A stretch of DNA of 64,000 nucleotides from Minisyncoccota bacterium. Lineage in GTDB: Bacteria > Patescibacteriota > Minisyncoccia > Phycocordibacterales > Phycocordibacteraceae. The notes beneath the pieces were generated by a model. It was not told where the DNA came from, did not search any database, and saw only the letters and a program-made list of their open reading frames with translations. This document shows positions 2,777-62,576 of this stretch, piece after piece (position 1 is the first letter of the stretch; each line of letters opens with the position of its first letter). Both the position numbers and the translations under genes were made by a program. The stretch covers positions 60,674 through 124,673 of the forward strand of contig JAGOSG010000002.1 of NCBI GenBank assembly GCA_018062445.1, written 5' to 3'.

Positions 2777-2813
2777 GACACAGTCTTACCAGCAAAGTGC
2801 GCTCTCAGAGCTC

Positions 2814-4423: not shown

Positions 4424-4524
4424 AGTTGAAATCGTGCTAATGGTATCTCACATGAGTGGTGTGTCAATTATGCCTTAGTGAGGCAAATCCAAAATAGTGG
4501 ACATCGGAACTCTAAAATATATAA

Positions 4525-4672
4525 TTAAAATCTAGAGTATTTTCGGAAACCCGCTTTCGAACCGAGGAGAGTGATTTTTGAAGCGAGACGCAAGCTGGAA
4601 AACGAAGAATATCAGAGATATTTTGAGTTCGAAGCGTAGTGTCGTAGCAAAAAATCACTCTTCGCAGAGCCG
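4525..4672 (+). promoter_or_regulatory. structured divergent intergenic region (long-range inverted repeat) upstream of the aguB-like gene
   Basis: cgaggagagtgattttt (about 4563-4580) pairs with aaaaatcactcttcgcag (about 4643-4660), enclosing roughly 60 nt with internal stems; lies between divergent starts at 4423(-) and 4675(+). Confidence 0.25.
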
Positions 4673-4674
4673 GA

Positions 4675-7717: not shown

Positions 7718-9175
7718 CATGGAATTGTTCCACGACCAGCTTCCGCTAGCCGTGCCTTGTTACAACTTACTCCCTGTTACCGAGCTTACCGTAGACCGTG
7801 ATAAACACGGGCGTCGGGTCCTCCCGGCTCCCTTGAGTTGATGGGCGGTGAGTACAAAATTCGAGAACGTATTCACCGTAGTATAGCTGACCTACGATTA
7901 CTAGCGATTCCAGCTTCAAGAGGTCGAGTTGCAGACCTCTATCCGTACTGAGGAGGCGTTTTGGGATTTGCTCCACCTTACGGTATTGCTTCCTTTTGTC
8001 GCCCCCATTGTATCACGTGTGCAGCCCAGGGCATCAGAGGGACATGCTGATCTGGCGTCATCCCCTCCTTCCTCTCCCGTGAGGGAGCAGTCTCGTCTGA
8101 CATATAAAACAGACAACGGGGGTTGCGTTCGTTTCCCCACTTAAGGGAACAGCTCAAGCCACGAACTGACGACGACCATGCATCACCTGCCATACACCCT
8201 CGAAGGCTCCCAATGTTTCTACTGGGATGCAGTATGGTTTCAAGCCCTGGTAAGGTTCTTCGTTTACCGACGAATTAAGCCACATGATCCACCGCTTGTG
8301 CGAATTCCCGTCTATTCCTTTGAGTTTTAGTCTTGCGACCGTACTACCCAGGCGGTTCCCTTAACGCGTTAGCTACGCCACGAAGAGGGTCGATACTCCT
8401 CATAGCTAGGGAACATGGTTTAGGGCGTGGACTACAAGGGTATCTAATCCTTTTCGCTACCCACGCTTTCGTGCCTCAGTGTCAGGAATGTCCTAGTATG
8501 CTGCCTTCGCATTCGGTGTTCCCCATGATATCAACGGATTTCACCCCTACACCATGAGTTCCACATACCTCTTACATCCTCTAGTTTTACCGTTTCCCCC
8601 CGAGCCTCGGAGTTGAGCTCCGAGAATTTAAAGGAGGACTAATAAAACCACCTACGCACCCTTTACGCCCAGTAATTCCGGATAATGCTTGGGGCCTCTG
8701 TATTACCGCTCCTGCTGGCACAGAGTTAGGAGCCCCTTATTCATGAGGTACTGTCAAAACTTCATCCCTCATAAAAGGTGTTTACGTCCCGAAGGACTTC
8801 ATCCACCACGCGGCGTCGCTCCGTCAGACTTTCGTCCATTGCGGAAGATTCTCGACTGCGGCCTCCCGTAGGAGTAAGGACCGTATCTCAGTTCCATCGG
8901 TGGGGGTCAGCCTCTCAGCTCCCCTAAACGTCATAGCCTTGGTGAGCCATTACCTCACCAACTAGCTGATATTACGCAGGCTCCTCCTAGAGCGAATTGC
9001 TCCTTTACACCTTAGTGACTATCGAGAATTGCGCCATCTTTCGATGGAATATGCTCGACTCTAGGGTAGATTCCTACGTGTTACTACCTCGTCTGCCGTG
9101 GGTCTAAACCCACTCGACTTGCATGCCTTATCCACGCCGCCAGCATTCATCCTGAGCTAGGATCAAACTCTAATT
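7718..9175 (-). rRNA. rrs: 16S rRNA (about 1.46 kb)
   Basis: 5' end AGAGTTTGATCCTAGCTCAG (revcomp of 9151-9172). 530-loop region GTGCCAGCAGGAGCGGTAATAC (revcomp of about 8700-8722). 3' end ...GTAACAAGGCACGGCTAGCGGAAGCTGGTCGTGGAACAATTCC (helix 45 with GGAA loop conserved). ORF-track ORFs 7767-8871 are spurious. Confidence 0.85.
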
Positions 9176-9607
9176 TAAGATCTCATGCCTCCAATTGAAG
9201 GGCACGAAATCAATACACGGAACAGAAGAAAAAGAAGAAAATCTTTTATCTTCGGATCTTTTGATTTCTTGGCTCTTGATTACTACTTACTTTTTTGTGT
9301 TTTACGATTGGCTCCTATGCTAGTCGTAAAACTTACTGGTCTTCGTACTTTTACGTACGTATTCAATTTTCAAAGATCTCTGTGGTATTCGGGCTTACGC
9401 CCTCACACGACTGCACTCGCTCGGAAATGAAAAATAAATTTTCCTTCCCCTCACTCGCTTGTCGATAAAAAAAGCCGAAGCTTTTTCTTTACTCCGGCAT
9501 ACGGGTGAATCGTCTTTCGTTGAATCAGTTTGTTCCCATATGACAAATATAACCGCATGCCACAGCAAGCGTTTGTCTATACTACTCCCCCGCCCCAAAG
9601 CAGTCAA

Positions 9608-9722
9608 GCTGGGCTTTTGAAGCCAGCTTTCAGGTTTCAGGTGCCAGGTTTTAGCTTTAAATTAAAGCCTAGAATCTTAAATAAAAGCTGGAAGCTGAAA
9701 GCCGACAGCTGGAAGCTTTTAG
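9608..9722 (+). repeat. intergenic repeat family A, full-length copy (CCAGCTTTCAGGTTTCAGGTGCCAGG...GCTGAAAGCCGACAGCTGGAAGCT)
   Basis: Near-identical to the minus-strand copy at 26866-26946; shorter relatives at 39006-39043, 39661-39693, 24665-24701. Confidence 0.8.
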
Positions 9723-10465: not shown

Positions 10466-10915
10466 CTATTTACCTTTTGGAGGTCTCGAGCTTTTGGTTT
10501 CAGTAACCTTCTCTAAATCCCTACCATTCCACACTACACCTGAACCTACACCGTCTTCGTCAATCATATAAATACCTACATAACCATCTCTCCGCAGAGC
10601 CTTTTTGTTTACATCAGCAAGCTCAGGAAACGAGACTATTTTGAGCGGACCTTTTAGTTTCCATTCGCTTATATTTTCCCCATACCCTTCAGAAAAATTC
10701 CTATTTAAAGATATGTGTACACCATCACCATCCACGGGGAGCCACGCACCAGGGCGAAGTTTTTTTATGCCAACCTTAGGTGAGCCGTGATACCACCGTC
10801 GTCCCACGAAAGCGAGCTCCGCTGGCGGTATCTCCTTTGTCTCCTCACTCTTTCTTTCATTTAAAAATCTAGGTGTACCAAACTTCATATATTCTCTCTG
10901 GCTATGAAGGTCCAC
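10466..10915 (-). CDS. hypothetical protein (149 aa; RRWYHGSP motif)
   Basis: ORF overlaps the stop of the upstream small ORF (ATGA-type coupling) at the 3' end of the secD-secF operon; no family recognised; locally higher GC and Pro/Arg/Gly-rich. Confidence 0.4.
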   Translation of the reverse strand: MDLHSQREYMKFGTPRFLNERKSEETKEIPPAELAFVGRRWYHGSPKVGIKKLRPGAWLPVDGDGVHISLNRNFSEGYGENISEWKLKGPLKIVSFPELADVNKKALRRDGYVGIYMIDEDGVGSGVVWNGRDLEKVTETKSSRPPKGK

Positions 10916-11136
10916 TAACCTTCTATTTTCTCGATGAGAGACCTCAATGGACGCAGTCCATTTCTAGGTTTCCAACCACCGCACACTCCTGTTTGGAGGG
11001 CATCTGTGGGGCACGTACCACCGTGCACCTTTCTACGGCACTTACTGTCGCCCAAATTACGCCCACAGTTTGGAGGTTCCGGTCTATAGTCACCAGGTAC
11101 CAAAGGCTTAAGAGTTATGTAATCCTCTAATGACAT
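10915..11136 (-). CDS. hypothetical small Cys-rich protein (73 aa, 4-6 Cys; possible zinc ribbon)
   Basis: CGRNLGDSKC...HGGTCP...GVCGGW; translationally coupled to the downstream 149-aa ORF. Confidence 0.3.
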   Translation of the reverse strand: MSLEDYITLKPLVPGDYRPEPPNCGRNLGDSKCRRKVHGGTCPTDALQTGVCGGWKPRNGLRPLRSLIEKIEG

Positions 11137-12082: not shown

Positions 12083-13456
12083 CTATTTTCCTAAGCCATT
12101 ACCGAATAAGAAATGTGCTGCCTTTGAGGTAGACTTGCCAAATCCAAGGGCAAGCAACAATGTTCTCGTTACCGTAACAGCAGTAAACATTGAAACGAGG
12201 ACACCAATGATGAACACGAGCGCGAAACCTTTAATCACCGCAGTGCCACCAAGCCAGAACAAAATAACGCCAGTGATGATTGATGAGAGGTTTGAATCGC
12301 TGATCGATGACCACGCACGCCTGAATCCTTCCCGTATTGCTTCACCGAGAACCTTCCCACTCTTCAGCTCTTCTTTCATTCTTTCAAAAATAAGAATATT
12401 GGCATCAACTGCCATACCAATAGAGAGAATGAATGCAGCGAGGCCTGCGGTTGTAAGTGTTACTGGAATGAGCTTAAAGATAGCGAGGTTCAAGGCAACA
12501 TAGAGTGACAGTGCAACGACTGCAATAACCCCAGGAAGTCGGTACCAAAGAATGAGGAAAAGCGCGACGAGCCCAAAGCCCCAGAGGCCTGCATCCACAC
12601 TTTGCGTTAGCGCCTTCTCACCGAGCGATGCGCCAATAGTCTGAGAAGACACGAGCTCAATTGGCACTGGCAGGGCTCCGAAGTTTAGATTGCGGACCAA
12701 TTCACGAGCCTCATCTGGAGTAAAGGTACCTGTAATATTTGCCTCTCCGTTTGGAATAGCTTCTTGAATGACTGGCGCTGAAATAATTACATCGTCGAGA
12801 AATATGGCGAGTACCTTACCAACATTTTCTGATGTAATGTCCTTGAAACGCTTAGCCCCTTCAGGATTGAAGGTTAATACAATAATTGGCTGATTGGAGA
12901 GTGTGCCTTCGCGACCTGACGAAAAATCAAGCGTTGCGTGATCAAGATACTGACCCGTAAGTCCCATATCTTCATAAATTTGAGCGCCTGCTTCATCGGT
13001 CTTCTGGAGGCGAAAATCGAGCGTTGGAGTTTGACCTATTGCTTTCACTGCCTCCGATAAATCAGTGACGCCCGGAAGTTCAACAATCAATCTATTGTCT
13101 CCACCACCGACAACACCCCCACGCTCTACCTGCACTAATGGTTCCGACACTCCAAAAATATTCACTCGCTTCTCAACAACATCACGCAAACTCTGCATTG
13201 CAGAATTTACATCACCAGAAACAACTTTTGATGTGTCGGCCCTATATAAAAGATGTGATCCGCCAGCCAAATCAAGACCGTAGCGAAATGGGAATTTTTG
13301 ACCCGCCTGCTCCGAGCTAACTACAAACCAACCAATACCCGCACCAATCAAAAGGAGGACAACTGCGACAATTCGTACTTTCCACATAATGCTCAGAGTA
13401 TGCCACGAGTAGCGTTTAGGGGCTAGGGGTGAGCGTTTAGAGAGGAAAACAGGCAA
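12083..13456 (-). CDS. secD: protein-export membrane protein SecD (true start probably the MWKVRIVAV Met near 13387)
   Basis: LDLAGGSHLLY signature and a periplasmic domain followed by 6 TM helices. Confidence 0.85.
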   Translation of the reverse strand: MPVFLSKRSPLAPKRYSWHTLSIMWKVRIVAVVLLLIGAGIGWFVVSSEQAGQKFPFRYGLDLAGGSHLLYRADTSKVVSGDVNSAMQSLRDVVEKRVNIFGVSEPLVQVERGGVVGGGDNRLIVELPGVTDLSEAVKAIGQTPTLDFRLQKTDEAGAQIYEDMGLTGQYLDHATLDFSSGREGTLSNQPIIVLTFNPEGAKRFKDITSENVGKVLAIFLDDVIISAPVIQEAIPNGEANITGTFTPDEARELVRNLNFGALPVPIELVSSQTIGASLGEKALTQSVDAGLWGFGLVALFLILWYRLPGVIAVVALSLYVALNLAIFKLIPVTLTTAGLAAFILSIGMAVDANILIFERMKEELKSGKVLGEAIREGFRRAWSSISDSNLSSIITGVILFWLGGTAVIKGFALVFIIGVLVSMFTAVTVTRTLLLALGFGKSTSKAAHFLFGNGLGK

Positions 13457-14399: not shown

Positions 14400-15311
14400 T
14401 TAAACTCCAAACAATTTCTTCAATTCAGCCACCCCCTCCTCAAGAGATACTTCGGGTGTCCAATTCAGAAACTCCTTCGCCCGAGTGATATCCGCTCTCG
14501 TGTGGCGGGGTTCTAGTCGAGGCTCAATATGTACAGTGGTTCCCCCAATTAATTCTGCAAGGGCATTCACAGACACTTCCTGTCCTCGTCCTAAGTTTAT
14601 TACTTCCCCTTTTCCTACATGCTCGCTTCTCGCGGCAAGTATCATACCGCGGACGATATCCTGCACATGGGTGAAATCCCGAGTCTGTTGCCCATCTCCG
14701 GTAATCGTGAGTGGAACCCCATCTTTCTTTTGTTTCAAAAACTTACCTATCACGAGTGCATATGCACCCTCAGGATCAAGTCGGGACCCATATACATTGA
14801 AAAACCGCAATGACACCGTGGAAAGCCCATACACTTCACTAAAAACCCGACAGTACAACTCGCCAACATATTTTTGAAGCGCATAGGGGCTCAGTGGTTG
14901 TGGTGGCACATCTTCGGAAAGCGGTAGAGTTTCTTGATTGCCGTATGCGGAACTTGAAGCTGCATATACAACACGCTTTACTCCAGCATCTTTTGAAGCT
15001 TTTAAAACTGCCAAGGTACCCCCAACATTCACTGAGTTGGTCTCTTCAGGATACTCAATTGAATACTGCACCCGTGGAAGAGCTGCGAGATGAAAGACGA
15101 ATTCACTACCTGCAATAATTGGAGCTATCGCCTTGGAATCGCGTACATCTACAACATGCAATGTTGCGTCTTTATGTACATTGTCTCGCTTTCCCCCAGA
15201 TAGGTCGTCTATGACGGACACAGCAAATCCCTCCTTAATAAGCGCATCAACCACATGGGACCCAACAAACCCAGCGCCACCAGTTACAACCGCTTTCTTT
15301 GTACTGCTCAT
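14400..15311 (-). CDS. NAD-dependent epimerase/dehydratase (UDP-glucose 4-epimerase-like SDR)
   Basis: VVTGGAGFVGSH Rossmann motif, YALQK (YxxxK) catalytic motif, 303 aa. Confidence 0.8.
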   Translation of the reverse strand: MSSTKKAVVTGGAGFVGSHVVDALIKEGFAVSVIDDLSGGKRDNVHKDATLHVVDVRDSKAIAPIIAGSEFVFHLAALPRVQYSIEYPEETNSVNVGGTLAVLKASKDAGVKRVVYAASSSAYGNQETLPLSEDVPPQPLSPYALQKYVGELYCRVFSEVYGLSTVSLRFFNVYGSRLDPEGAYALVIGKFLKQKKDGVPLTITGDGQQTRDFTHVQDIVRGMILAARSEHVGKGEVINLGRGQEVSVNALAELIGGTTVHIEPRLEPRHTRADITRAKEFLNWTPEVSLEEGVAELKKLFGV

Positions 15312-19909: not shown

Positions 19910-20310
19910 GAGAACAGCTTAACAGATTTAATCTATCAGGCGATGCCTCATTGGTTCCGCTAGGAAAACACCCAGCTTTTTAATCACAAAACCTGCGCTA
20001 CGGCAGGTTTTGTGATTAAAAATTTAATTTCGAGTCTCTTGTTTTTGAAATTAGTGGTCTCCCCACTCTCCTACGTGGAGATCTAATGCTCTCAACAATT
20101 TATGAGCGAGATCTCTCATCTTATCGGGATGTTCTGGAGGACGTGCAGACTCTGATCCATGCAAAAGACCCCTTATCAATGCGCCGACAGACGCTTCACT
20201 ATGTGTTGGATTGCCACCACGGGGCGCATGAATGTCTTCAAAATCCATAAAAAAAATAAAATACACCCAAATCAATGGGCTGTTAATTTGTAACGCTGTA
20301 TCAAGTCCTC

Positions 20311-20423
20311 TGTTCTGGCGATTAGCTACTCTCCCCTTTCGAGTACCATCGCTACAACCATGCTTAACTGCCGAGTTCGGAATGGGATCGGGTGTGACCA
20401 CGGCGTCAAATCACCAGAACACA
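20311..20423 (-). rRNA. rrf: 5S rRNA
   Basis: Revcomp: TGTGTTCTGGTGATTTGACGCCGTGGTCACACCCGATCCCATTCCGAACTCGGCAGTTAAGC...GATGGTACTCGAAAGGGGAGAGTAGCTAATCGCCAGAACA. Matches the 5S helix I / loop C consensus. ORF 20051-20401 is spurious. Confidence 0.75.
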
Positions 20424-20437
20424 AGATTCGATACACT

Positions 20438-20469
20438 TCACTCATCACAAAGAAAACACCGAGCACAAT
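20438..20469 (-). promoter_or_regulatory. 3' half of the 23S processing stem (pairs with 23975-24006)
   Basis: Minus-strand attgtgctcggtgttttctttgtgatgagtg downstream of 23S is the reverse complement of the sequence 60 nt upstream of the 23S 5' end (attatgctcggtgttctctttgtgatgagttg on plus at 23975-24006). Classic RNase III stem flanking 23S. Confidence 0.5.
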
Positions 20470-20489
20470 ATTTCGTTAATAGATTTTCA

Positions 20490-23920
<3,431 letters not shown>

Positions 23921-23974
23921 GAGGAAGCTTGAAAACCACATAACGATTCTGTTCAATTACGAACAGTGATTTTT

Positions 23975-24006
23975 ATTATGCTCGGTGTTCTCTTTGTGAT
24001 GAGTTG
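23975..24006 (-). promoter_or_regulatory. 5' half of the 23S processing stem
   Basis: See 20438-20469; about 32-nt complementarity flanking the 23S. Confidence 0.5.
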
Positions 24007-24235: not shown

Positions 24236-24386
24236 TACAGGAGAGCCTCTTTGAGTTGATTACCCTATCCACAGGATTTCCACTCCTAATTAGGTGCTAG
24301 GTTTTAGGGACTAGGTTCTAGCTTTGGGACAAAAATACCCTAAGGTTTCACCTTAGGGTATAGATATAAGTTATCGCTACAAAAAT

Positions 24387-24633: not shown

Positions 24634-24665
24634 AAAAAACACCCGCTCTTTCGAGCGGGTGTTTT
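24634..24665 (-). terminator. intrinsic terminator of the 24716-25423 gene
   Basis: Minus strand reads aaaACACCCGCTCgaaaGAGCGGGTGTttttttt immediately after the stop. Confidence 0.6.
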
Positions 24666-24715
24666 AAGCTGAAAGCTAGAAGCTGTAAGCTAACAGCTTT
24701 CGCACTTTGTGCGAA

Positions 24716-25600: not shown

Positions 25601-25675
25601 ATAGCCACTAGCCAATAGGGGTTAAGCCACTAGGGAACATCTGAAACTCCCTAAACCCTAGTGGCTAAACCCTCG
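25601..25675. repeat. palindromic element GCCACTAGGG...CCCTAGTGGC (family D) just downstream of a gene stop
   Basis: agccactagccaataggggttaaGCCACTAGGGaacatctgaaactccctaaaCCCTAGTGGCtaaaccctcg; second copy at 33171-33246. Confidence 0.7.
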
Positions 25676-26851: not shown

Positions 26852-26865
26852 AAATTAATTTATTA

Positions 26866-26946
26866 GGTTTCAGCTGCCAGCTGTCGGCTTTCAGCTTGAG
26901 CTTCTGAATTAAAAGCTAAAAGCTGGCACCTGAAAGCTGGAAGCTT
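26866..26946 (-). repeat. intergenic repeat family A copy filling the rplJ-rplL spacer
   Basis: Minus strand: aagcttCCAGCTTTCAGGTGCCAGCTTTTAGCTTTTAATT...GCTGAAAGCCGACAGCTGGCAGCTgaaacc. Confidence 0.8.
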
Positions 26947-26948
26947 TA

Positions 26949-27479
26949 CTAGACTTTGGTTTTCCCTACCTCAGCAAGTGCTATCGCAAAACGCTGAATA
27001 GGAGAATTAATAACATTGACGAACATTCCGCGAAGTACTGCAACTGGAGGAATGGTAGCCACAGCAACAATTTCTGTTCCTGAGAGATACTTCCCTTCTA
27101 GTGCACCCCCCAGGAATACAAGCTTGCCCTTCAATTTCTTGACGAACGCTTGCAAACTTCTCGCTGGCGCTGTGATGTCGGATTCCACACCCTCTACTTC
27201 AGAGAGATAGGCAAAGGCGACTTCACCAGTTAATTCTGGCATCTCACCAGAAAAACCTTTCGCATCGAGTGCCTTCTTCAAGAGCGTCTTCTTAACGACG
27301 GTGTACTTCACACCCTCGCTTTTGAGTGCATCTCGAAGTTCGTTTACTTCATGAACTGTCACTCCTCTAAAAGAAACAAAGACAATAGACACTGCTTTCA
27401 GAAGTGCATCAGTTGTTCCCTTTAAGAGTGACTCTTTTTTTGCTCGAGTAATGGCCACGTTAGTTTTTGTTACGAACAA
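26949..27479 (-). CDS. rplJ: 50S ribosomal protein L10
   Basis: 176 aa; ...VSFRGVTVHEVNELRDALKSEGVKYTVVKKTLLKKAL... L10 family; directly upstream of rplL. Confidence 0.9.
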   Translation of the reverse strand: MFVTKTNVAITRAKKESLLKGTTDALLKAVSIVFVSFRGVTVHEVNELRDALKSEGVKYTVVKKTLLKKALDAKGFSGEMPELTGEVAFAYLSEVEGVESDITAPARSLQAFVKKLKGKLVFLGGALEGKYLSGTEIVAVATIPPVAVLRGMFVNVINSPIQRFAIALAEVGKTKV

Positions 27480-32372: not shown

Positions 32373-33257
32373 AGATACAATAATAATTTTCTAATTTTTG
32401 ACGCCACACTCATTCACGCTTGAATTAAATAAAACGCGAGAATCAGTGGTGCGGGTGCGTGGACGCAAATCATTCGTTCGACCGAATAACTCACGACCCG
32501 CCGCATACCTGTTAATAAGTACGACTAAGAGTCGTCCTTTCTACCGTCGCTCGTTCGGAAGAGAAATAAAATTTCTCTTCCCTCACTCGCTAGGTAGTAA
32601 GCATAACGAGATGTCACACTCTCTGTCATTTCTTGTTCGGGAAAGAAATAGAATTTCTTTCTACTCACTTGAATGACAGCAAAGAACAACTAATTTTCTG
32701 TCTTCCGTAATTGAATCTAGAAAAATTTTCTAAACTTTTTTCAGAAGACAGCACAACTAAATTCCATCAACCCGTTCGCATTATTTCTAATGTAAACGGG
32801 ACCAATGGTAAGAAGAAAAAATGGTCATGCAGGATATAGCCGTGGTGGGATAGTGCTTCCTTACAGTGATGTACGCATGCTTCATTTATTACAACGAAAC
32901 CAAGGCGCACGCTTGAGATGTATTCCGGATATGAAAGATGTCAAAGTTCTGTTCGACCGGAAGCGCGCCACAACAACGCGCAACCGAACACCCAGTACGG
33001 GAGTTCACTTATTATACGTGCCCGCCCCGCTCTACATATTAGAACAGAGGGTTTGTATATGTGGACAACATAGACAACAAAAAGCCCGTTTCCGGGTTTG
33101 TTGCTGTCTATAGGATCATGCCATCCACAAATGAAATACTATCTGAAATAAGGCTCAAAAGCAAGAGAGCAGGGGTTAGCCAATAGCCACTAGGGTGTAG
33201 GGTATAGGGAGCTCCCCTAATGACTAAACCCTAGTGGCTATACCCTTACAGAAAAGC
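32373..33257. other. 885-bp noncoding region with repeated hairpin modules; candidate ncRNA(s) and promoter of the surface-protein gene
   Basis: No credible ORF (32398-32676 and 32805-33113 have non-protein-like composition). Contains GGAAGAGAAATAAAATTTCTCTTCCCTCACTCGCT (about 32548-32590) and its variant GGGAAAGAAATAGAATTTCTTTCTACTCAC (about 32640-32670), both similar to 9419-9465 upstream of the 16S; plus GCCACTAGGG...CCCTAGTGGC palindrome at 33171-33246. Confidence 0.3.
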
Positions 33258-38969: not shown

Positions 38970-39081
38970 TGTTAGACGCTTCGGCGCCTTTATTAATACT
39001 TATTGAGAAGCTTTCAGGTTTCAGCTGTCAGGTGCCAGCTTCGGAGTTTGAAACAAACTTAAACGCTATAATTTAACCCTC

Positions 39082-39657: not shown

Positions 39658-39700
39658 ATTAGCTTTCAGATGCCAGCTGTCAGGTTTCAGCTTTTAAATA

Positions 39701-41050: not shown

Positions 41051-41092
41051 TGAGGCAAACGAGGACAGCTTCTAGGTTCAAGGTTCTAGGTG

Positions 41093-41899
41093 CTAGCTAG
41101 GAATACTGAAAAGCCGAAGGGCGTTTTGGACGGTAGCCTCTCTGGCTACCTCTTCTGAAATGCCCCGAATTGAGGCAATAGCCCCAACAATGTACTTCAC
41201 ATATAAAGGCTCATTTCTTCTCCCTCTAAAAGGGTTCGGGGTGGCATAGGGGGCATCAGTTTCAGTCATGAGCATCTCGAGTGGTGCAAACTTCACCACC
41301 TCATCGTATTCGCGAGCAAAAGTGAGAACGCCCGTGAATGATGTTGTGAAGCCAATGTTGTAAAAACGCCTCGCTATGTCAACGGTACCCACAAAAAAAT
41401 GAATGTTCCCTCGGAGTTTTTCACCTACCTCTCTCTTTTTCGATTCCAAAATGGCAAGCATGTCGAGATACGTGTCGACAGTCCCTCGCGAAGGCCTGCC
41501 ATGAATCATTAATGGTTTGTCGTATTTAATTGCAAAATCAATATGCTTCTCAAACTCACGCATCTGGCGTTTCTTGGCGACAGCGATATCGCCCGTAATC
41601 CGAAAATAGTCGAGCCCACACTCTCCTACCCCGACAACCTTTGGATTTGAAACAAGTTCTTTGTATTCGCTCTCTGAAAAAGTTTCTGACTCAGTATCGT
41701 TAGGGTGAAGTCCGATCGTCGCAAAAAATCCTTCCTTCCCTTCTCCAAATTTAACCGCATCTTCTGATGTGGCTTTATTAACACCAACAGTAATAGTCCA
41801 TACAGACTCGTCACGCATACGTTGAAGCACCTCTTCGAGGTCTTGGTCGTAGTCCTTAAAAGTTATGTGAGAGTGGATGTCGAAATACTTCGGAATCAT
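41093..41899 (-). CDS. TatD-family metal-dependent hydrolase / DNase
   Basis: 268 aa; FDIHSHI..., ...GVGECGLDYF..., ...METDAPY TatD motifs. Confidence 0.8.
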   Translation of the reverse strand: MIPKYFDIHSHITFKDYDQDLEEVLQRMRDESVWTITVGVNKATSEDAVKFGEGKEGFFATIGLHPNDTESETFSESEYKELVSNPKVVGVGECGLDYFRITGDIAVAKKRQMREFEKHIDFAIKYDKPLMIHGRPSRGTVDTYLDMLAILESKKREVGEKLRGNIHFFVGTVDIARRFYNIGFTTSFTGVLTFAREYDEVVKFAPLEMLMTETDAPYATPNPFRGRRNEPLYVKYIVGAIASIRGISEEVAREATVQNALRLFSIPS

Positions 41900-47663: not shown

Positions 47664-47821
47664 CTAATCAGGGTATAGCGTTTAGTGCTCAGCGTCTAGG
47701 GTTTTAAAGAAAAGAAAAAGGAACTTTCTTGTCATATGATCCCTGCGGATCCGACGAAGCTGGTCCCTTCGGACACGACGAAGCGTCGCCTATACGCTAA
47801 ACGCTACCCACTAACCACTGC

Positions 47822-48406
47822 TCACAGTCCACTTTCAGAAATAGCCTCGTTAATAAGGCGAACAAGTGTGCCCCGTGATTCACGCACCGCTTTCAAAGTT
47901 GGCATATCGTACGAAATATCTAAAAACAACTTCATTATAGGATCCTCTCGCACATACCCTAATGCTGCGAGTACCCGAAGTACCACAATGCATTCCGCTT
48001 CAAGCACATACTCCTCATCGATGCTTGGGATGATGCGAAAGAATCCAAACAGCGCACTAAAAAGATACGGATCACTGCCTTCTCCCCGAATAAACTGCCT
48101 AACTATTGTGATAACCCGGGCCGTAACTTCTTGAGCTTTTGTATTACCTGAAAGTGCAAAATGCGAATTCTCAGTTTTTGTAGCACCAATAACACGCCAC
48201 ACATCACGACCTTTCACCAAAACAAAAACGCCCGTTGTCCCAACCTGTAGGTGCGGGCGAAGCTTTGAGCGTTCTTCACGGGCACTTTTAGCGAGAGCGG
48301 AAACAAGTCCTAACGAGTCCGTATATATAGAAATACGCACACTGCCCTCTCCGGCTGAGCGCCTAGCAACTATAATTCCTCGAGCTGTTACTTCACGAAC
48401 GGACAT
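47822..48406 (-). CDS. recO: DNA repair protein RecO-like
   Basis: 194 aa; N-terminal OB-fold pattern GIIVARRSAGEGSVRISIYTDSLGLVSALAKSAR...SKLRPHLQ; short relative to canonical RecO. Confidence 0.45.
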   Translation of the reverse strand: MSVREVTARGIIVARRSAGEGSVRISIYTDSLGLVSALAKSAREERSKLRPHLQVGTTGVFVLVKGRDVWRVIGATKTENSHFALSGNTKAQEVTARVITIVRQFIRGEGSDPYLFSALFGFFRIIPSIDEEYVLEAECIVVLRVLAALGYVREDPIMKLFLDISYDMPTLKAVRESRGTLVRLINEAISESGL

Positions 48407-51400
48407 TGAACCTAAATGTCATCCCATCAAACACCAATTCATTCGTACCATTACCTGATTCTCTTGATGAGAGTCTGGTGGCAGTACTGAGAGTATGCCA
48501 ATGCTTTTCTAAAAACTTCTCTATGTCATCACTCTGAACAAACACCAATGTTGCCGCCTCTTTTGGTGTAAGTCCTGCCTCTTTGCGAAGTTCTTGAATG
48601 AAGCGAATTACTTCGCGCACATTACCTTCCTCTTTCAACTCATCTGAAATATCAGTATCAAGTATCACTTCATCTTTCGATAGCGCTCCGTCGATGACAA
48701 CCTCCTTCACATTGAGCTCATCTTTTATTAATTGCAGAAGCTCTACTCTTCCTGCTAACAGTTCACTATTCACTGTTATTTTTGCAAGTGGTTGTCTCAC
48801 TTTTATATCCACCTTCTGCCTCGCTTCGAGCCCTCGCGATGCAATGCGCCTGACTTCCACCATTGCTTCTTGAAGTGGTGCGTCAGTAGAACCCGTGCGT
48901 GGCCACTCACACAAATGCACGCTCTCTGGCATGTCTTTAATTTTCACTCTCTGGTAGGCGCTTTCGGCGACAAACGGCATGAAAGGTGCTGATATTTTTG
49001 CAAAAATTTCTATAACGCTACGAAGTGTTTGAAGTGCGTCTCTTGCGTCAGCCTCTTCCTCTTTAAAGCGATCGCGAGAACGCCTGAGATACCATGTCGA
49101 CAAATCGTCCACAAAAAGAGTAAGTGGGCGCGTTGCCTTATCCAACTCATAGGATTCCATTCCCCTCTCAACTTCTCCAATAACTTGATTCAATCGTGAA
49201 AAAATCCATCTATCGAGAGGGTGAGAACTTGGAGACACTCCGTGCTCCAAGTCTTTATAGAGCTCATAGAAAGAGACGACATTCAAAAATCGTCCGATGA
49301 GTTTCGACGCGACTTCTCCCACTCCCTTCTCTGAAAAATTTAAATCTTCTGCCTTCATTAAAGGTGACGCGAGGAGGTAGTACCGAATAGCATCTGCGCC
49401 ATATTTCTCGAGCACGGTGAGTGGGTCAGGGTAATTTTTCAAACGCTTCGACATTTTTTGCCCATCTTCTGCCAAAACAATGCCGTTCACGATCACATTC
49501 TTATAGGTTGCTTTGCCGAAAAGCCCCACCCCCAAGACAAGGAGCGAATAAAACCAACCTCTTGTTTGATCCAATCCTTCTGCAATAAAATCTGCGGGGT
49601 AGCCACGAGATTTTTTGAGCCAGCCTGGTTTTGGGTTAAAGGTGGAAAGATTCTCAAAGGGGTAATGATTCTGAGCATACGACATTGAGCCTGACTCAAA
49701 CCAGCAATCAAAAACATCGTGTACACGCTCAAGCCTCGTGCCATCGGAGTCTATAAGCACTACCTCATCGATATATGGGCGATGGTAATCAAGTTCGTAA
49801 TTTTCGTTGTGAGGGATAGGAGTGAAAGGAAGGCTCACTATTTCTGCAGGTGCAAGCATGGCGTGATCGGCAAGAATAGATACCGCCTCCTTTGCAGTGC
49901 TTCCTTTTGAAACCGCAGTGAGCGCGGCTACTGGCCAACCATGCGAAACAAACAATATATTCTTCCCTGCATATTTGTGCTCACATTCATATAAAAGTGC
50001 ACCCACACGACGACGCATGTCATTGATACTTTCCCCTTCTTCGGGACCTTTTTCAAAAAGCGGCGCAATGTCTTTAAAGTGCTCTGCCCACTCGCGGTCA
50101 AGTCGACCATTAAAAACACCGTGGTTGTATTCGTTCAAACGCGAATCAGTCGACATGGCCGACACATCGAGACCAAGAACTTCGCGTGCTATTTCAGCAG
50201 TTTGAGTCGCACGCAAAAGTTCCGAATGAATGATGATATCTATGTGTGTCCCTAAATTTTGGGCAGATTTTTTTGCCTCCGCCTTTCCATACTCGGTGAG
50301 AGAAATACCGTCGTCAGGTTTATAACTTATGATTTTCTTAACATTCTTTTCCGATTCTCCATGACGCATCGCAAAATATCTGTTACCAGATTTTTTCGTA
50401 TGAGATTTCAATTCATCAAGTGAACCGATGAAAATGTTTTCTTTCGTTTTGTGATTGCGCCATACAGGAATTGGTGCACCCCAGTACCGAGCGCGTGAAA
50501 TTGCCCAATCCCTAGCGTTTAAAAGCCAGTTTCCAAACCTCTTATCCCCCACTTCTTTTGGTACCCAGTTTATTTTTTTATTTTCGGCAACAAGCTTGTC
50601 TTTAAATTTCGTTACCTCTACAAACCACGATGATGATGCGTAATTTAAAAGCGGCGTATCACATCGCCAACAATGCGGATACGAGTGTATAATTTTTTCC
50701 TTTGCAAAGAGCAATCCCTTCCCTGCAAGGTATTTAATAACCGCAACATCAGTTGATTGTGGGTCGTCTTTTGGCTTTGCCTGAAGTCCTTTGAAATCCA
50801 AAACAGCATCAACAAAAAAACCGTCCTTGTCGACGTGGTGCACTATCGGGATTCCCTCTTTTTGCGCGAGCTCCAAATCTTCGGCACCAAATGCAGGAGC
50901 AAGATGTACTAAGCCTGTTCCACTATCCATCGTCACATATGGAGCGTGATACACCTTCCACGCTTTTTCTTTTCCTTTGATGTTGTGATCAGCGAAATAC
51001 GAGAACGGAGGCTTGTATGATTTACCAACAAGTTCACTACCAAGAAATTCTTTCTCTATTTTGTAGTCAACTTTAATTACTTCCAACCTTTCTTTAGCGA
51101 GAATATATTTTTCATTCCCCGCTGAAATTTTTACATACGTAAATTCAGCGTTCACCGCAGCCGCCATGTTTCCAGGCAAAGTCCATGGCGTAGTTGTCCA
51201 TGCAAGTAGAAATGTTCCAGGTTCATCAACAAGCTCAAGTTTTACGGTGACAGAAATATCAGTGATGTCTTTGTACCCTTGCGCTACTTCAAAGTTAGAG
51301 AGCGTGGTGCCACAGCGAGGACAAAGGTGCATTGCTTTAAATCCTTCATACACCAATCCCTTTTTATGAAGATCATTAAATGCCCACCATACGCTTTCGG

Positions 51401-51872
51401 TGTAGGTGGCATCCATCGTCCTATAGTCATTCTCCATATCTACCCATCTACCGAAACGAGGAATAATGGCTTTCCAATCATCCGAATACCGGAGCACGGC
51501 TTTACGGGCAGCTTCGTTGAATGTGGCGACACCTAAAGTTTCAATATCCCGCTTCGTAGCAAGACCGAGCTCCTTCTCTATCTGATTCTCCAACGGCAAT
51601 CCATGGCAATCCCAACCCCACCGCCTTGGCACATGGTAGCCCTGCATTGTTTTGTAGCGAGGAATAGCATCTTTAATGGTGCCTGCGAGGATGTGGCCGT
51701 AATGTGGCAAGCCAGTGGCAAATGGTGGTCCATCATAAAAAACAAACTCCCCTTTTGGAGCCTCCCTAGAAAGGGTTTTTTCAAAAATCTCATTCTTTTG
51801 CCAAAAAGCTAGAATTTCTTCCTCACGCTTGGCGGGTTCGCTTTTAGTATCTCCATCCATAAACTTCATCAC
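48393..51872 (-). CDS. ileS: isoleucyl-tRNA synthetase with an internal histidine-phosphatase-family (PGAM-like) domain insertion
   Basis: 1159 aa; PFATGLPHYGH (HIGH), WISRxRYWG-type AISRARYWGAPIPVW, KMSKRLKNYPDP (KMSKS), C-terminal anticodon-binding region. Residues about 497-685 (nt 49818-50384) carry RYFAMRHGESEKN ... LFVSHGWP, the two catalytic-His motifs of histidine phosphatases. Confidence 0.9.
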   Translation of the reverse strand: MMKFMDGDTKSEPAKREEEILAFWQKNEIFEKTLSREAPKGEFVFYDGPPFATGLPHYGHILAGTIKDAIPRYKTMQGYHVPRRWGWDCHGLPLENQIEKELGLATKRDIETLGVATFNEAARKAVLRYSDDWKAIIPRFGRWVDMENDYRTMDATYTESVWWAFNDLHKKGLVYEGFKAMHLCPRCGTTLSNFEVAQGYKDITDISVTVKLELVDEPGTFLLAWTTTPWTLPGNMAAAVNAEFTYVKISAGNEKYILAKERLEVIKVDYKIEKEFLGSELVGKSYKPPFSYFADHNIKGKEKAWKVYHAPYVTMDSGTGLVHLAPAFGAEDLELAQKEGIPIVHHVDKDGFFVDAVLDFKGLQAKPKDDPQSTDVAVIKYLAGKGLLFAKEKIIHSYPHCWRCDTPLLNYASSSWFVEVTKFKDKLVAENKKINWVPKEVGDKRFGNWLLNARDWAISRARYWGAPIPVWRNHKTKENIFIGSLDELKSHTKKSGNRYFAMRHGESEKNVKKIISYKPDDGISLTEYGKAEAKKSAQNLGTHIDIIIHSELLRATQTAEIAREVLGLDVSAMSTDSRLNEYNHGVFNGRLDREWAEHFKDIAPLFEKGPEEGESINDMRRRVGALLYECEHKYAGKNILFVSHGWPVAALTAVSKGSTAKEAVSILADHAMLAPAEIVSLPFTPIPHNENYELDYHRPYIDEVVLIDSDGTRLERVHDVFDCWFESGSMSYAQNHYPFENLSTFNPKPGWLKKSRGYPADFIAEGLDQTRGWFYSLLVLGVGLFGKATYKNVIVNGIVLAEDGQKMSKRLKNYPDPLTVLEKYGADAIRYYLLASPLMKAEDLNFSEKGVGEVASKLIGRFLNVVSFYELYKDLEHGVSPSSHPLDRWIFSRLNQVIGEVERGMESYELDKATRPLTLFVDDLSTWYLRRSRDRFKEEEADARDALQTLRSVIEIFAKISAPFMPFVAESAYQRVKIKDMPESVHLCEWPRTGSTDAPLQEAMVEVRRIASRGLEARQKVDIKVRQPLAKITVNSELLAGRVELLQLIKDELNVKEVVIDGALSKDEVILDTDISDELKEEGNVREVIRFIQELRKEAGLTPKEAATLVFVQSDDIEKFLEKHWHTLSTATRLSSRESGNGTNELVFDGMTFRFNVRS

Positions 51873-54173: not shown

Positions 54174-54856
54174 ACTTTCGCCATCATACCTCGCTAAAGC
54201 ATGCCACAAAAAGACTGCACTCTCACCTCTGGAACCAACCAAGAACACAGGAGGGTTTATCGTGACTTACGACCCCAGCTATATTTATTTTTGATTCGCC
54301 AGGCAATATCGATTTTCCGCATCCCCTGCATACTGGGCAATGCTCGACACGAATACCTGTTGATTTTTCTTCTGAGGACCCAATCATTCCTAGAAGCATA
54401 CTGAAATTCAACTTGGTAAGTGGCCACTCTACAATGACAGGGAGTTGCCCATGATTTTTTTCTTTCATATTTTTTTTTTACTCTTGTACATAATAAGTTT
54501 GGAGATCTTTTATCTCACATCGAATTTCTCAACAGTTTCTTTGACCATCTCCTGTAGCTTCTTAATCACCCCTTCTTTACCTATTTCCCTAATAAGCTTA
54601 GCTATTTCAACAGCATAGAAGGTGATTTCAAGTGGAGGATTTTCTTTGTTTTGTTGTTCCATAGTTTTAGATTGAATGTGTAAATAAGAAAAAACAGCCT
54701 CGTTTGAGACTGTTTGGGAAATTTCGTTATGTACAAAAACTCGCAGACAATCTCAAACAGAATGTCTACGGCGACGCACCTGAATTAATACAACATGTGT
54801 ATTCATAGAATTAATACTAACAACCATTTTAGTTAAGTCAATAGCCGTAGATACCA

Positions 54857-54900
54857 CCCATACACATCCCTAATTCGTGCGAATTAGGGATGTGTATGGG
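54857..54900. repeat. perfect 21-bp-arm palindrome immediately downstream of the GNAT gene
   Basis: CCCATACACATCCCTAATTCG-tg-CGAATTAGGGATGTGTATGGG; no flanking T-run. Confidence 0.5.
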
Positions 54901-54910
54901 TGAGAAAAAA

Positions 54911-56564: not shown

Positions 56565-57296
56565 TTATTTCTTACCCTTAATAACTTTTAAAACAGTGTC
56601 ATAAATTTGCTCATGTATCTCTTCTCTCGGAAGAATACCATTTTTGTTTCCGCACTCAATCTTCTTCCAATTTCCTTTTTGGCTAATAAGTTTTAAGGCG
56701 CTTTTCTGCGCTGCCTCAAGATACTCTGCATCCCCTTCTACAATATCCTTTCCTCTGTGGGCATAGCGTTTTTTATCCTCTCGATCCTTATTCTTCAAAA
56801 GCTTCAATACCTCTTTCATGGGGAGATGGAGGTACACAATCAAATCAGGTCGCGGGAGCCCAAATACTCCATGCTCCATGGTGTCGAGCCACTTTAAAAA
56901 TGCGCGACGCTTCTTCGCGTCATTTATTTTTCCTCCCTGATGGAGCTGATTCGCCGACACATAACGATCAAGAACAACGGTTTTCCCTTCTTTGAGCCAC
57001 TTTTCCAATTTTTCTTTGGACTCAAAGCGGTCAGCTGCATACATAACTGAGGCAATGTATGGATCAATATGCAAAAAATCACCGTACTCTCCTGTGAGCA
57101 TTGCGCCTATAAAGTGCCCAAAGAAATTCTTGTAGTACTGAGGGAAATCGAGAGTCTCTATCTTCATTCCTTCTCGCTTTAACCGCGCAACCAAGAGCTT
57201 TGTTTGTGTTGCCTTACCTACCCCGTCGGTACCATCTATGACTATAAGTCTGCCCTTTTTACTCTTCATTATCCCCAGTATATCGTGAGCTTTCAT
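56565..57296 (-). CDS. tmk: thymidylate kinase
   Basis: 243 aa; P-loop LIVIDGTDGVGKATQ, DRY-like ...VLDRYVSANQL.... Confidence 0.85.
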   Translation of the reverse strand: MKAHDILGIMKSKKGRLIVIDGTDGVGKATQTKLLVARLKREGMKIETLDFPQYYKNFFGHFIGAMLTGEYGDFLHIDPYIASVMYAADRFESKEKLEKWLKEGKTVVLDRYVSANQLHQGGKINDAKKRRAFLKWLDTMEHGVFGLPRPDLIVYLHLPMKEVLKLLKNKDREDKKRYAHRGKDIVEGDAEYLEAAQKSALKLISQKGNWKKIECGNKNGILPREEIHEQIYDTVLKVIKGKK

Positions 57297-57302
57297 TTTT
57301 CC

Positions 57303-57336
57303 CCTAAACGCTATACGCTATACGCTATACGCTCTC
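57303..57336. repeat. tandem octamer (ACGCTATA) x 3 forming the entire 42-bp tmk/thyA divergent intergenic region
   Basis: cccctaaACGCTATACGCTATACGCTATACGCTctcatATG. Related AACGCTA motifs at 13410-13440, 47671-47700, 47789-47808, 60677-60708, 62529-62540. Confidence 0.85.
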
Positions 57337-57338
57337 AT

Positions 57339-60662: not shown

Positions 60663-60712
60663 CGCATTGTGCCAAAGCTAAACGCTAAACGCTAACCCCT
60701 ATACGCTCATCA

Positions 60713-62444: not shown

Positions 62445-62544
62445 GATGCCTACATGATAACACTCCTAAGCTATCCTGTCAATAGCACATTCTGCCAACA
62501 AAAAACCCCGGCAAATGCCGGGGTTTTCCCTAAACGCTTTTTTC

Positions 62545-62576
62545 CTAGAACCTAGAACCTAGAACCTAGAACCTAA
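62545..62576. repeat. tandem heptamer repeat (CCTAGAA) x 4.6
   Basis: cctagaacctagaacctagaacctagaaccta directly after the stop of the SIMPL gene; preceded by a ccctaaacgct motif (62529-62540). Confidence 0.9.

Follow-up and report, generated by a model that had tools for sequence, protein, structure and literature searches.

Introduction

Tandem heptamer repeats in intergenic DNA have been known for decades from cyanobacteria, Xanthomonas and Beggiatoaceae, and their function was never established. Here we analyse a tandem heptad repeat between the back-to-back genes tmk and thyA in a 64,000-nucleotide stretch of a Paceibacterota genome (Minisyncoccota bacterium, GenBank assembly GCA_018062445.1, contig JAGOSG010000002.1, positions 60,674 to 124,673), hereafter the window, in which all coordinates are given. 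An original prediction, made from this sequence, had taken the repeat and related words for a promoter-proximal cis element. The explanation that we favour, and to which we give about an even chance, is that the tandem is a solo copy of a lineage-specific dispersed heptad-repeat family, belonging to the known intergenic heptanucleotide class, that overlaps a leaderless promoter. The family occupies about a third of the intergenic spacers in this genome.

Several systems share parts of this architecture. The REP (repetitive extragenic palindromic) and BIME (bacterial interspersed mosaic element) sequences of enterobacteria are dispersed extragenic units of about 35 nt that stand alone or form inverted pairs. 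They are located in 3' untranslated regions (UTRs) and between the genes of operons, and many lie no more than 15 nt from a stop codon. They form hairpins, are polymorphic among strains, and the same spacers contain different families in related species; the REP unit is itself an imperfect palindrome, and REPs are tied to RAYT (Y1) transposases. Contiguous units of 7 or 8 bp also serve as operators. The omega repressor, a ribbon-helix-helix (RHH) protein of inc18 plasmids, reads heptads, MetJ reads 8-bp met boxes, and ToxR reads TTTTGAT heptads at the ctx promoter. Such sites hold 2-10 copies, direct or inverted, overlap promoters, and are read cooperatively by one protein dimer per unit; they are confined to a few specific promoters, and the binding protein is known. 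Among RNA-binding proteins, HutP reads UAG-N4 with a period of 7, and TRAP reads G/UAG repeats. In the leaderless promoters of Actinobacteria and Deinococcus, the -10 box lies 6-7 nt upstream of the start codon.

The closest described repeats are the heptamers GGGAATC and GGGGA(C/T)T of Xanthomonas and Nostoc, which are over-represented in non-coding DNA, prefer four units, and also occur as inverted repeats (Rehm et al. 2015, PMC4692102). The 5' end of their G-rich strand is nearest the open reading frame (ORF): this strand is the coding strand up to 50 bp past stop codons, which it sometimes overlaps, and the non-coding strand before start codons (PMC4692102). Neighbouring genes belong to all functional classes, sister species occupy the same spacers with extensive length and sequence variation, and a function was not established (PMC4692102). 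In Nostoc reporter assays, deletion of heptamer repeats altered the access of regulators, and the study postulated a binding partner not yet identified (bioRxiv 10.1101/2022.06.06.494920). TAACTGA repeats of marine Beggiatoaceae form sets of 2-6, mostly intergenic and a few nt upstream of starts, in spacers without canonical ribosome-binding sites and in ribosomal-protein operons, with a patchy distribution (MacGregor 2015, PMC4679880). According to Mrazek, as cited in that paper, heptamers are the commonest long simple repeats in prokaryotes. Our literature search found no paper linking heptamer repeats, or leaderless or Shine-Dalgarno (SD)-less translation, with Patescibacteria.

Results

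The tmk/thyA array

Five heptads in phase, CCCTAAA, three CGCTATA and CGCTCTC, form a solo array at 57302-57336 on the + strand, at the thyA edge of the tmk/thyA spacer. The sequence from 57300 is tcccctaaac gctatacgct atacgctata cgctctcata tg, and the array reads GAGCGTA TAGCGTA TAGCGTA TAGCGTT TAGGGGA on the - strand. Tandem Repeats Finder (TRF) places a repeat of period 7 at 57304-57333, with 4.3 copies and 95% matches. The tandem is thus real by phase, by TRF and by the shuffle controls below, but its unit had been described as 8 nt (ACGCTATA) and is in fact 7 nt.

Between the two genes the + strand reads CAT TTTT CCCCTAAACGCTATACGCTATACGCTATACGCTCTCAT ATG. The gap had been put at 42 bp, a value that relied on an in-frame ATG at 57296. 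The assembly's gene caller places the tmk start at 57269, and this start matches the N-termini of Tmk in relatives (by-eye comparison of sequences). Because tmk probably starts there, the spacer is probably 69 bp (57270-57338). With this start, the array spans the -10 to -35 region of thyA and DNA upstream of the tmk promoter. A -10-like box of tmk, TATACT (57277-57282, - strand), is found 7 nt upstream of its ATG (57269-57267). The -10-like box of thyA, TATACGCT (57326-57333, + strand), appears to be built from the last heptads, as either TATACG, at 7 nt from the ATG (57339), or TACGCT, at 5 nt. The tandem had been proposed to be the whole divergent promoter, but the tmk box is outside the array and only the last heptads form the putative thyA box.

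The words of the tandem recur well above expectation. ACGCTATACGCT, with at most one mismatch, has six matches (47670, 47794, 57308/57315/57322 and 60682) against 0.11 expected, and none of 100 shuffles reached six. AACGCTA has 16 matches against 6.8 +/- 2.6 (0/100 shuffles), six of them in arrays (13410, 47676, 47800, 57307, 60681, 60688), two promoter-proximal (39062, 34005) and eight inside genes, about the chance level. All five other sites at which the words had been reported exist.

The thyA array was found again in identical form in six other independent assemblies, except for one substitution in strain L098 (97% Tmk identity), and its unit number is constant in all seven assemblies compared. 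A phase-variable contingency locus at thyA was considered and rejected, given this constancy and the housekeeping neighbours. Contigs of two other assemblies (L003, L004) end about 10-15 nt from the array. Relatives with 76-78% Tmk identity have tmk/thyA spacers of only 20-35 bp with no array, and the array-free relatives L091, L093 and L095 carry GCTATACTATA, i.e. TATACT, 7-8 nt before the thyA ATG. In L090, a segment of ~370 bp, apparently a small gene, is inserted between tmk and thyA, with CAGCT-type arrays on its flanks.

A dispersed family of degenerate heptads

We inspected about 77 kb of the contig, including the window, using gene calls and Pfam labels from the annotation of contig JAHZTO010000105.1 (metagenome-assembled genome (MAG) GCA_020049755.1). 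A self-similarity scan without a preset core gave nine segments at period 7 and zero or one at each other period from 4 to 15, except for period 14, double of 7, with four. On one strand, all nine segments read Y-A-G-S followed by three variable bases. Runs of at least three YAGS units in phase numbered 15, against 0.29 in shuffles and 0-1 at other periods except 14. Runs of four or more (NAGNNNN) units numbered 24, against 2 in shuffles and 0-6 at other periods, and 21 of these 24 loose matches are outside genes.

After curation the family numbers 19 arrays, each made of 4-5 degenerate heptads with the formula (Y-A-G-S-N-N-N)n, and they lie in 14 of the 42 spacers that measure at least 30 bp. 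A single array is ~35 nt long; some stand alone and others form convergent inverted pairs. The unit logo runs T/C (60/30%), A (94%), G (94%) and C/G (47/47%), followed by weak T/G, T and T/C, and recurring unit types are TAGCGTT, TAGGGKY, TAGCCAM, TAGGTTC, CAGCTKY and CAGGTKY. The thyA array is of the TAGCG/TAGGG type, with five heptads each at 57304, 60678, 47790 and the reverse complement of 13410-13444; those at 57304 and 60678 are alike at both ends (CTAAACG ... CTATACGCTC). One further full array and three short ones are located in the left flank of the contig, and the first 9.5 kb of the window contains none.

No Rfam 15 family fits the arrays in a search of the whole window, at the gathering score or at E<=1; Leu_leader and miRNA matches on arrays were sub-threshold and due to chance. 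Four closely spaced G3 tracts occur in no array (unit list read by eye). Only 33177-33211, with upstream sequence from 33170, reaches four G3 tracts, with a long loop, and the CAGCTTT, TAGCGTT and TAGGTTC unit types are unable to supply them. A G-quadruplex reading was rejected, as G3 tracts are missing in most arrays. A further candidate, that TAG every 7 nt provides stops in all three frames, was discarded as a general rule, since CAG-type arrays contain no stop codons.

Placement relative to genes and folding

By spacer type, arrays are present in 10 of the 33 co-directional, 3 of the 7 divergent and 1 of the 2 convergent spacers. Nine begin within 16 nt past a stop codon, seven of these within 4 nt, after the genes for EF-P, L10, L11, RecO, a SIMPL protein, the 188-aa and 246-aa proteins, a mechanosensitive (MS) channel and TatD, whose stop codon is overlapped. 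The YAG strand is the sense strand in eight of the nine, and a terminator hairpin directly follows three (EF-P, SIMPL, MS channel). Arrays beside gene starts (thyA, secD, the 617-aa gene, L12, pyrH) have CTR on the sense strand, and array orientation relative to the downstream gene is mixed. By a manual tally of a small, partly non-independent sample, the 5' end of the YAG strand adjoins the neighbouring gene in 13 of 15 gene-adjacent arms. One array outside that tally (L134, 3073-3107) fills its entire spacer and is uninformative on polarity. Pairs are always convergent (YAG-> <-CTR). The neighbours of the 19 arrays are housekeeping genes of all classes, and some arrays are located within ribosomal-protein gene clusters. 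Because they are found in all spacer types, often 0-4 nt past stop codons, the heptad arrays as a class are not promoter-specific.

Convergent pairs fold as imperfect hairpins, better than shuffles (z -2.2 to -4.4), and solo arrays show no convincing structure (z -1.4 to +0.3). Folding of the thyA spacer + strand gave z -2.8, but with a minimum free energy of only -4.2 kcal/mol. Hairpin strength did not differ between sense and antisense strands.

Predicted start-proximal promoters and missing Shine-Dalgarno motifs

An upstream spacer of 40 nt or more precedes 37 genes, and in 16 of these TANNNT falls in a sharp peak 6-7 nt before the start codon, over a background of about 1 per position. SD-like motifs precede only 2 of 59 genes, and the 3' tail of the 16S rRNA (7718-7760, - strand) reads GGAACAAUUCC instead of GGAUCACCUCC, without the CCUCC anti-SD. 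Together these features point to leaderless genes, with initiation that appears SD-independent. Since the genes appear to have no mRNA leader, the thyA promoter would lie right against the start codon, and the thyA transcript is presumably leaderless. These indications also bear on start-codon annotation in Paceibacterota.

Putative -10 boxes and their distances to the start are TGCTAAAAT-6-ATG for FtsK, TGCTAGAAT-6-ATG for AI-2E, GATATACT-7-ATG for Tmk, CGCTATAAT-9-ATG for EF-P, CGCTATACCCT-6-ATG for the 617-aa gene and CGCTATACGCT-5-ATG for ThyA; hyp161 has TTGACA-17-TATCAT-9-ATG. For thyA, EF-P and the 617-aa gene, the predicted -10 region is the word GCTATAnnnT ahead of the start. For EF-P (ATG 39082), this region (AACGCTATAAT, 39062-39072, + strand) offers TATAAT 9 nt or TAATTT 7 nt before the ATG; it contains the word of the original prediction and belongs to no array. 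A generic scan for sigma-70 -35/-10 pairs performed no better than on shuffles.

A comparison with archaeal TATA/BRE spacing had been suggested. It does not apply because the rRNAs (16S, 23S, 5S) match bacterial models, a sigma-70-family gene is present, and the box is located 5-9 nt from the start rather than about 26. A known parallel is offered by the leaderless promoters of Actinobacteria and Deinococcus, which share the TANNNT peak 6-7 nt before starts and the absence of SD motifs. Unlike in those bacteria, the 16S rRNA here lacks the CCUCC anti-SD, and the -10 regions of thyA and the 617-aa gene are embedded in a heptad array.

Copying, turnover and distribution

Arrays at distant loci share more than a unit type. 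Positions 9625-9663 match the reverse complement of 26907-26945 (39 nt, 90%), and 9692-9717 that of 26872-26897 (26 nt, 96%), so that the order of unit variants is kept between the pairs 9624-9719 and 26864-26946. In addition, 39658-39693 matches 26862-26897 at 89%, and 25651-25673 matches 33224-33246 at 96%. The unit order common to distant loci therefore indicates copying between them. The SIMPL array has 4.6 units in the window and 3.5 in strain L098, and the perfect runs (TAGGTTC)4.6 and (CGCTATA)3 look freshly homogenised.

Orthologous spacers of relatives often contain other arrays, or none. In L098, the CofE/L11 array is absent and an insert of ~240 bp takes its place. The TatD/S6 array is of the TAGGTTC type in the window and L011 and of the TAGCGTT/TAGGGTT type in L010. 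Convergent pairs of three different unit types are found in the MscL spacer of the window, L011 and L012, and the pair next to the 188-aa gene (25602-25674) has counterparts of other unit types in L011 and L012. In the rplJ-rplL spacer, L011 carries another palindrome instead of the pair, and L012, with only ~20-28 bp there, is array-free. SSB/S6 has a pair in L011 and L010 and only a 47-nt remnant in the window, and the sigma-factor/EF-P array (39008-39042) differs in unit content in L011 and L010. Arrays mark rearrangement-prone spots. Small insertions, apparently genes, of L098 and L090 fall exactly at array-bearing spacers (CofE/L11, L098 reverse complement 14540-14780; tmk/thyA, L090 reverse complement 10700-11110). 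The rplJ-rplL spacer of L011 (1680-1810) contains a nested palindrome, whose outer arm GTTACGAACGAAGTGAGTT resembles sequence upstream of the window rplJ (26949-27030) and which may be a duplicated L10-leader-like structure.

The named relatives nearest to this genome are 'Parcubacteria group bacterium Greene0714_7' and Candidatus Paceibacterota MAGs. In a set of 80 FtsK-anchored relatives, period-7 arrays are confined to the three closest and a handful of scattered lineages, and two or more such arrays are present at only about 8 loci; the relatives at 65-71% identity in this set have none. Across Tmk-anchored metagenome loci totalling 376 kb, most arrays have a period of 7 (25 arrays) or 8 (10). 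The cores in these loci are lineage-specific, e.g. TTGACAY, AGCCAAT, AATTTCN, TTAACGAG and AAATTGTT, and are often arranged as convergent pairs. Arrays with a period of 8 nt in other Paceibacterota lineages (TTAACGAG, TAAATTGT, AAATTGTT) form convergent pairs and also occur directly upstream of tmk (L105 9947-9989 and 19293-19378; L117 1813-1853; L122 801-1952). Besides the window, the Paceibacterota lineages with arrays include L010-L012, L020, L027, L036, L037, L089, L105 and L122, and the sister lineages L013-L016 are free of them. A scan of viral contigs (IMG/VR) for TAGCGTTTAGCGTWTAG gave 20 matches, about chance by a hand estimate, in unrelated phages. One viral contig of 62% GC (L136, 12540-12710) contains a convergent (TAGCGTT)n / (CTAAACG)n pair about 100 nt apart.

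Individual arrays

The 47669-47703 array (+; CAGGGTA TAGCGTT TAGTGCT CAGCGTC TAGGGTT) is the left arm of a convergent pair; it is located 5 nt from the start of the 617-aa gene and contains the putative -10 of that gene (TATACCCT on the - strand). The right arm (47786-47820, -; CAGTGGT TAGTGGG TAGCGTT TAGCGTA TAGGCGA) begins 1 nt past the RecO stop codon. The solo array at 60674-60708 (-; GAGCGTA TAGGGGT TAGCGTT TAGCGTT TAGCTTT) fills the spacer from the L11 stop, 4 nt away, to the start of the CofE-like gene. Another, at 13410-13444 (+; TAGCGTT TAGGGGC TAGGGGT GAGCGTT TAGAGAG), lies 22 nt before the secD start, with CATACT, a -10-like box of secD, just downstream of the array. The perfect array (TAGGTTC)x4.6 at 62541-62575 (- strand) begins 3 nt past the SIMPL stop and is followed by the terminator hairpin.

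The convergent pair 9624-9719, ~95 nt long, combines CAGCTTT CAGGTTT CAGGTGC CAGGTTT TAGCTTT with AAAGCTG GAAGCTG AAAGCCG ACAGCTG GAAGCTTT, directly upstream of the -10-like TATAGT and likely start (9743) of pyrH. The annotated start of this AA_kinase gene, 9557, leads to translation through the pair; the ATG at 9743 (240 aa), with TATAGT before it, is the more likely start. Arrays can thus mislead gene callers: pyrH was called with an extension that crosses an array, and tmk offers a second in-frame start. A reverse-complement copy of this pair (26864-26946; z -4.2 / -3.7) fills the rplJ-rplL spacer. The pair 33177-33247 (z -4.4), 10 nt past the stop of the 246-aa gene, reads TAGCCAA TAGCCAC TAGGGTG TAGGGTA TAGGGAG, with AAGGGTA TAGCCAC TAGGGTT TAGTCAT TAGGGGA as the reverse-complement arm, and the pair 25602-25674, of TAGCCAC/TAGGG type, begins 2 nt past the stop of the 188-aa gene.

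Five more solo arrays were catalogued. The divergent sigma-factor/EF-P spacer has one at 39008-39042 (+; AAGCTTT CAGGTTT CAGCTGT CAGGTGC CAGCTTC). The array at 39660-39694 (+; TAGCTTT CAGATGC CAGCTGT CAGGTTT CAGCTTT) begins 2 nt past the EF-P stop, with the terminator hairpin next; this spacer is convergent, so no downstream promoter is expected. The TatD-S6 spacer is filled by 41066-41100 (+; CAGCTTC TAGGTTC AAGGTTC TAGGTGC TAGCTAG), which overlaps the TatD stop. Upstream of the 23S rRNA gene is 24291-24325 (+; TAGGTGC TAGGTTT TAGGGAC TAGGTTC TAGCTTT), and 24665-24699 (-; AAGCTGT TAGCTTA CAGCTTC TAGCTTT CAGCTTA) lies 16 nt past the MS-channel stop, before the terminator hairpin. A convergent CAG/TAG heptad pair (20870-20941; AAGTGGG CAGTGTA CAGATTG CAGTATG CAGAATG and an inverted partner; hairpin z -2.9) is located inside an unaligned insertion of the 23S rRNA gene.

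Discussion

Comparison with described repeat systems

With the repeats of Rehm et al. (PMC4692102) and the short tandemly repeated repetitive (STRR) sequences of cyanobacteria, the family shares abundant intergenic tandem heptamers, far above chance and above other unit lengths. Further likenesses to the former are the preference for about four units, inverted pairs, stop-codon overlap, non-coding bias over unrelated loci, variability of the same spacers between close relatives, and the 5' end of the G-rich (here YAG) strand nearest the ORF. Unlike those repeats, the units here are degenerate, with a 3-4-nt core Y-A-G-S plus variable bases and several types. Copying between loci involves whole arrays and pairs, divergent spacers show no depletion (3 of 7), and the host is a bacterium of the candidate phyla radiation (CPR) that appears SD-less and leaderless. 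The G-quadruplex formation of one subclass is not shared because most arrays here lack four G-tracts. TAACTGA repeats of Beggiatoaceae resemble the family in forming intergenic heptamer sets, in their presence in ribosomal-protein clusters and in their patchy phylogeny. They consist of a single exact heptamer, with related ones rare, and are mainly located before starts, whereas here many unit types have a common core and arrays are found as often after stops, often as convergent pairs.

The likeness to REP/BIME sequences lies in dispersed units of about 35 nt, solo or in inverted pairs, near stops and strain-variable. The unit here is a heptad array and not a palindrome, solo arrays have no significant fold and only pairs fold, and no RAYT (Y1) transposase was found among the called genes of the 77 kb. 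Contiguous 7- or 8-nt units, direct or inverted and in part overlapping promoters, recall the omega, MetJ and ToxR operators; unlike these, arrays are found here in a third of all spacers, including 3' ends. That the same architecture (4-5 units, gene polarity, convergent pairs, in-place turnover) recurs in an ultra-small CPR genome is informative, and suggests a general mechanism, mutational or protein-based, rather than an oddity of one phylum. With a third of its spacers occupied, this genome is also a very compact system in which to seek a binding or mobilising protein.

Origin of the arrays

Under the explanation we favour, arrays would spread by copying between loci, as suggested by shared unit order. 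They would change by replication slippage, to which the strain difference in unit number and the homogenised perfect runs point, and be replaced in place, consistent with the different unit types in orthologous spacers. They would be tolerated because they occupy the only free DNA, tight against stop codons and core promoters. In the case of thyA, the last heptads would supply the -10 box 5-7 nt before the ATG, and the upstream heptads would fill the spacer and the -35 region; the back-to-back tmk promoter has these heptads on its upstream side as well. Local slippage or conversion probably produced the three identical middle units, and the array may conceivably have been seeded from the ancestral GCTATACTATA promoter word. 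The thyA array as such would then be neither a dedicated operator nor an unusual TATA box, the predicted promoter being the terminal GCTATAnnnT only. The conserved YAG core would nevertheless be compatible with a protein-binding role for the arrays.

Several observations weigh against this explanation. Substitutions between orthologous arrays number 1, 1, 0, 6, 3, 5 and 4 at heptad positions 1-7 (n=20), so that positions 1-3 take 2 of 20 (P=0.0017), in a sample that is small and not phylogenetically independent. N-A-G-S is found in all nine arrays detected without reference to any core, array length is tight (4-5 units), and the gene-adjacent arms show the polarity described above (13/15). The arm 47669-47703 is identical in L098 and L090, and strains that are 8-16% apart in their coding DNA share it at 100% identity. 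Because pure neutral slippage does not predict these points, the conserved core, length and polarity suggest a sequence-specific constraint, e.g. a binding protein or mobilising enzyme. The called genes of the 77 kb included no transposase or other mobilising gene.

We consider it unlikely that the arrays are heptad operators, on which a small abundant protein would place one dimer per Y-A-G-S core every 7 bp and act as a global repressor, insulator or nucleoid organiser, with lineage-specific cores mirroring protein-site co-evolution. Retention of the YAG core while positions 4-7 drift would fit such a protein, as would the 4-5 contiguous units in direct and convergent arrangements, the lineage-dependent period of 7 or 8, the many arrays that overlap or adjoin core promoters (thyA, 617-aa, secD, CofE-like, pyrH) and the Nostoc reporter result (bioRxiv 10.1101/2022.06.06.494920). 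However, 17 small or unannotated window proteins gave no match to RHH or another candidate binder, nor to HutP or TRAP-like proteins (Pfam, E<=0.1). Arrays are also present in a convergent 3' spacer and between stop codon and terminator, where no promoter is expected, the housekeeping genes of most relatives lack them, and orthologous spacers freely gain, lose and swap them; nor is the 5'-end-at-gene rule predicted. We see a role in RNA as quite unlikely. The YAG strand in 3' UTRs or intercistronic RNA would there be bound by a ring-type reader of NAG triplets, or paired with the CTR arm, to control read-through, processing or mRNA stability in a REP/BIME-like manner. The sense-strand YAG of 8 of the 9 arrays within 16 nt past a stop, seven of them starting within 4 nt, argues for it, together with the three arrays directly before intrinsic terminators (EF-P, SIMPL, MS channel), the folding of convergent pairs (z -2.2 to -4.4) and the CAG-heptad pair within an insertion of the transcribed 23S rRNA; the logo, with N weak and A and G at about 94%, would suit NAG-triplet readers such as HutP and TRAP. 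At thyA, however, the YAG strand is tmk-sense but upstream of the tmk -10, and should therefore not be transcribed, and CTR is what the sense strand shows in the arrays of secD, S6 and GatC. Some convergent pairs join non-complementary unit types (L011 14744/14793), solo arrays lack significant structure, sense and antisense fold equally well, and the sampled DNA yielded no HutP- or TRAP-like gene.

The original prediction of a dedicated promoter-proximal element, a -10/TATA box or an operator carried by the AACGCTA/TATACGCT words at -40..-1, is in our judgement very unlikely in that form. It holds for a -10-type element directly upstream of starts that overlaps the word, as indicated by the TANNNT peak (16/37) and by the terminal GCTATAnnnT of thyA, EF-P and the 617-aa gene, and four CGCTA-type arrays are indeed located within about 60 nt upstream of a start codon. 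It fails for the words as a class, which include post-stop arrays, an array in a convergent spacer and swaps in close strains. The same arrays adjoin stop codons (47786, 60674, 25647, 33213), divergent, promoter-bearing spacers are not enriched, and orientation is mixed, with YAG read at the CofE-like gene and CTR at thyA, secD and the 617-aa gene. The CAGCTTT, TAGGTTC and TAGCCAC types behave alike yet contain no TATA-like word, and the AACGCTA matches inside genes (8/16) are at chance level. Random low complexity, the alternative named at the outset, or an assembly artefact has next to no probability. Only the short length of each array would favour it; every shuffle control was exceeded, and assemblies made independently (NCBI, Logan, ENA and JGI) contain the same array. 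In a broader and speculative scenario, to which we give a small chance, the arrays would be cis sites of a so-far undescribed dedicated system of SD-less, leaderless Paceibacterota, in which a protein reads N-A-G(-S) every 7 nt (8 in sister lineages) on DNA or RNA. If so, arrays coated after stops and before leaderless promoters could insulate or couple adjacent transcription units, which would be relevant to genomes with almost no spacer DNA and few regulators, and the lineage-specific cores would represent protein-site co-evolution.

Additional features of the window

The rRNA genes are unlinked, with the 16S gene 11 kb from 23S-5S (7718-9178, 20313-20418, 20496-23921). The 23S gene has 3426 nt against a model of 2925 nt, with insertions of 53 nt and 74 nt and a larger unaligned block around 20749-21000. 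It is bracketed by a 31-nt inverted repeat of 94% complementarity (20440-20470, 23974-24004), which resembles an rRNA processing stem. Upstream of a 1164-aa PG-binding gene, about 800 bp (32373-33170) contain no called gene. A 31-nt motif, GAAAAATAAATTTTCCTTCCCCTCACTCGCT, has two copies in this gene-free stretch (32561-32591, 32643-32673) and another upstream of the 16S gene (9429-9459). Two perfect palindromes are found in spacers, at 54855-54902 (23+23 nt) and 19977-20022 (20+20 nt). An isoleucyl-tRNA synthetase-like gene (48393-51860, 1155 aa) has a His_Phos_1 (histidine phosphatase) Pfam match between its tRNA-synt_1 segments. At 1397-6606, a cluster encodes an Orn/Arg decarboxylase, a NUDIX protein, a deoxyhypusine synthase, a CN hydrolase and an agmatine-deiminase-like protein, i.e. 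a polyamine/hypusine-type pathway.

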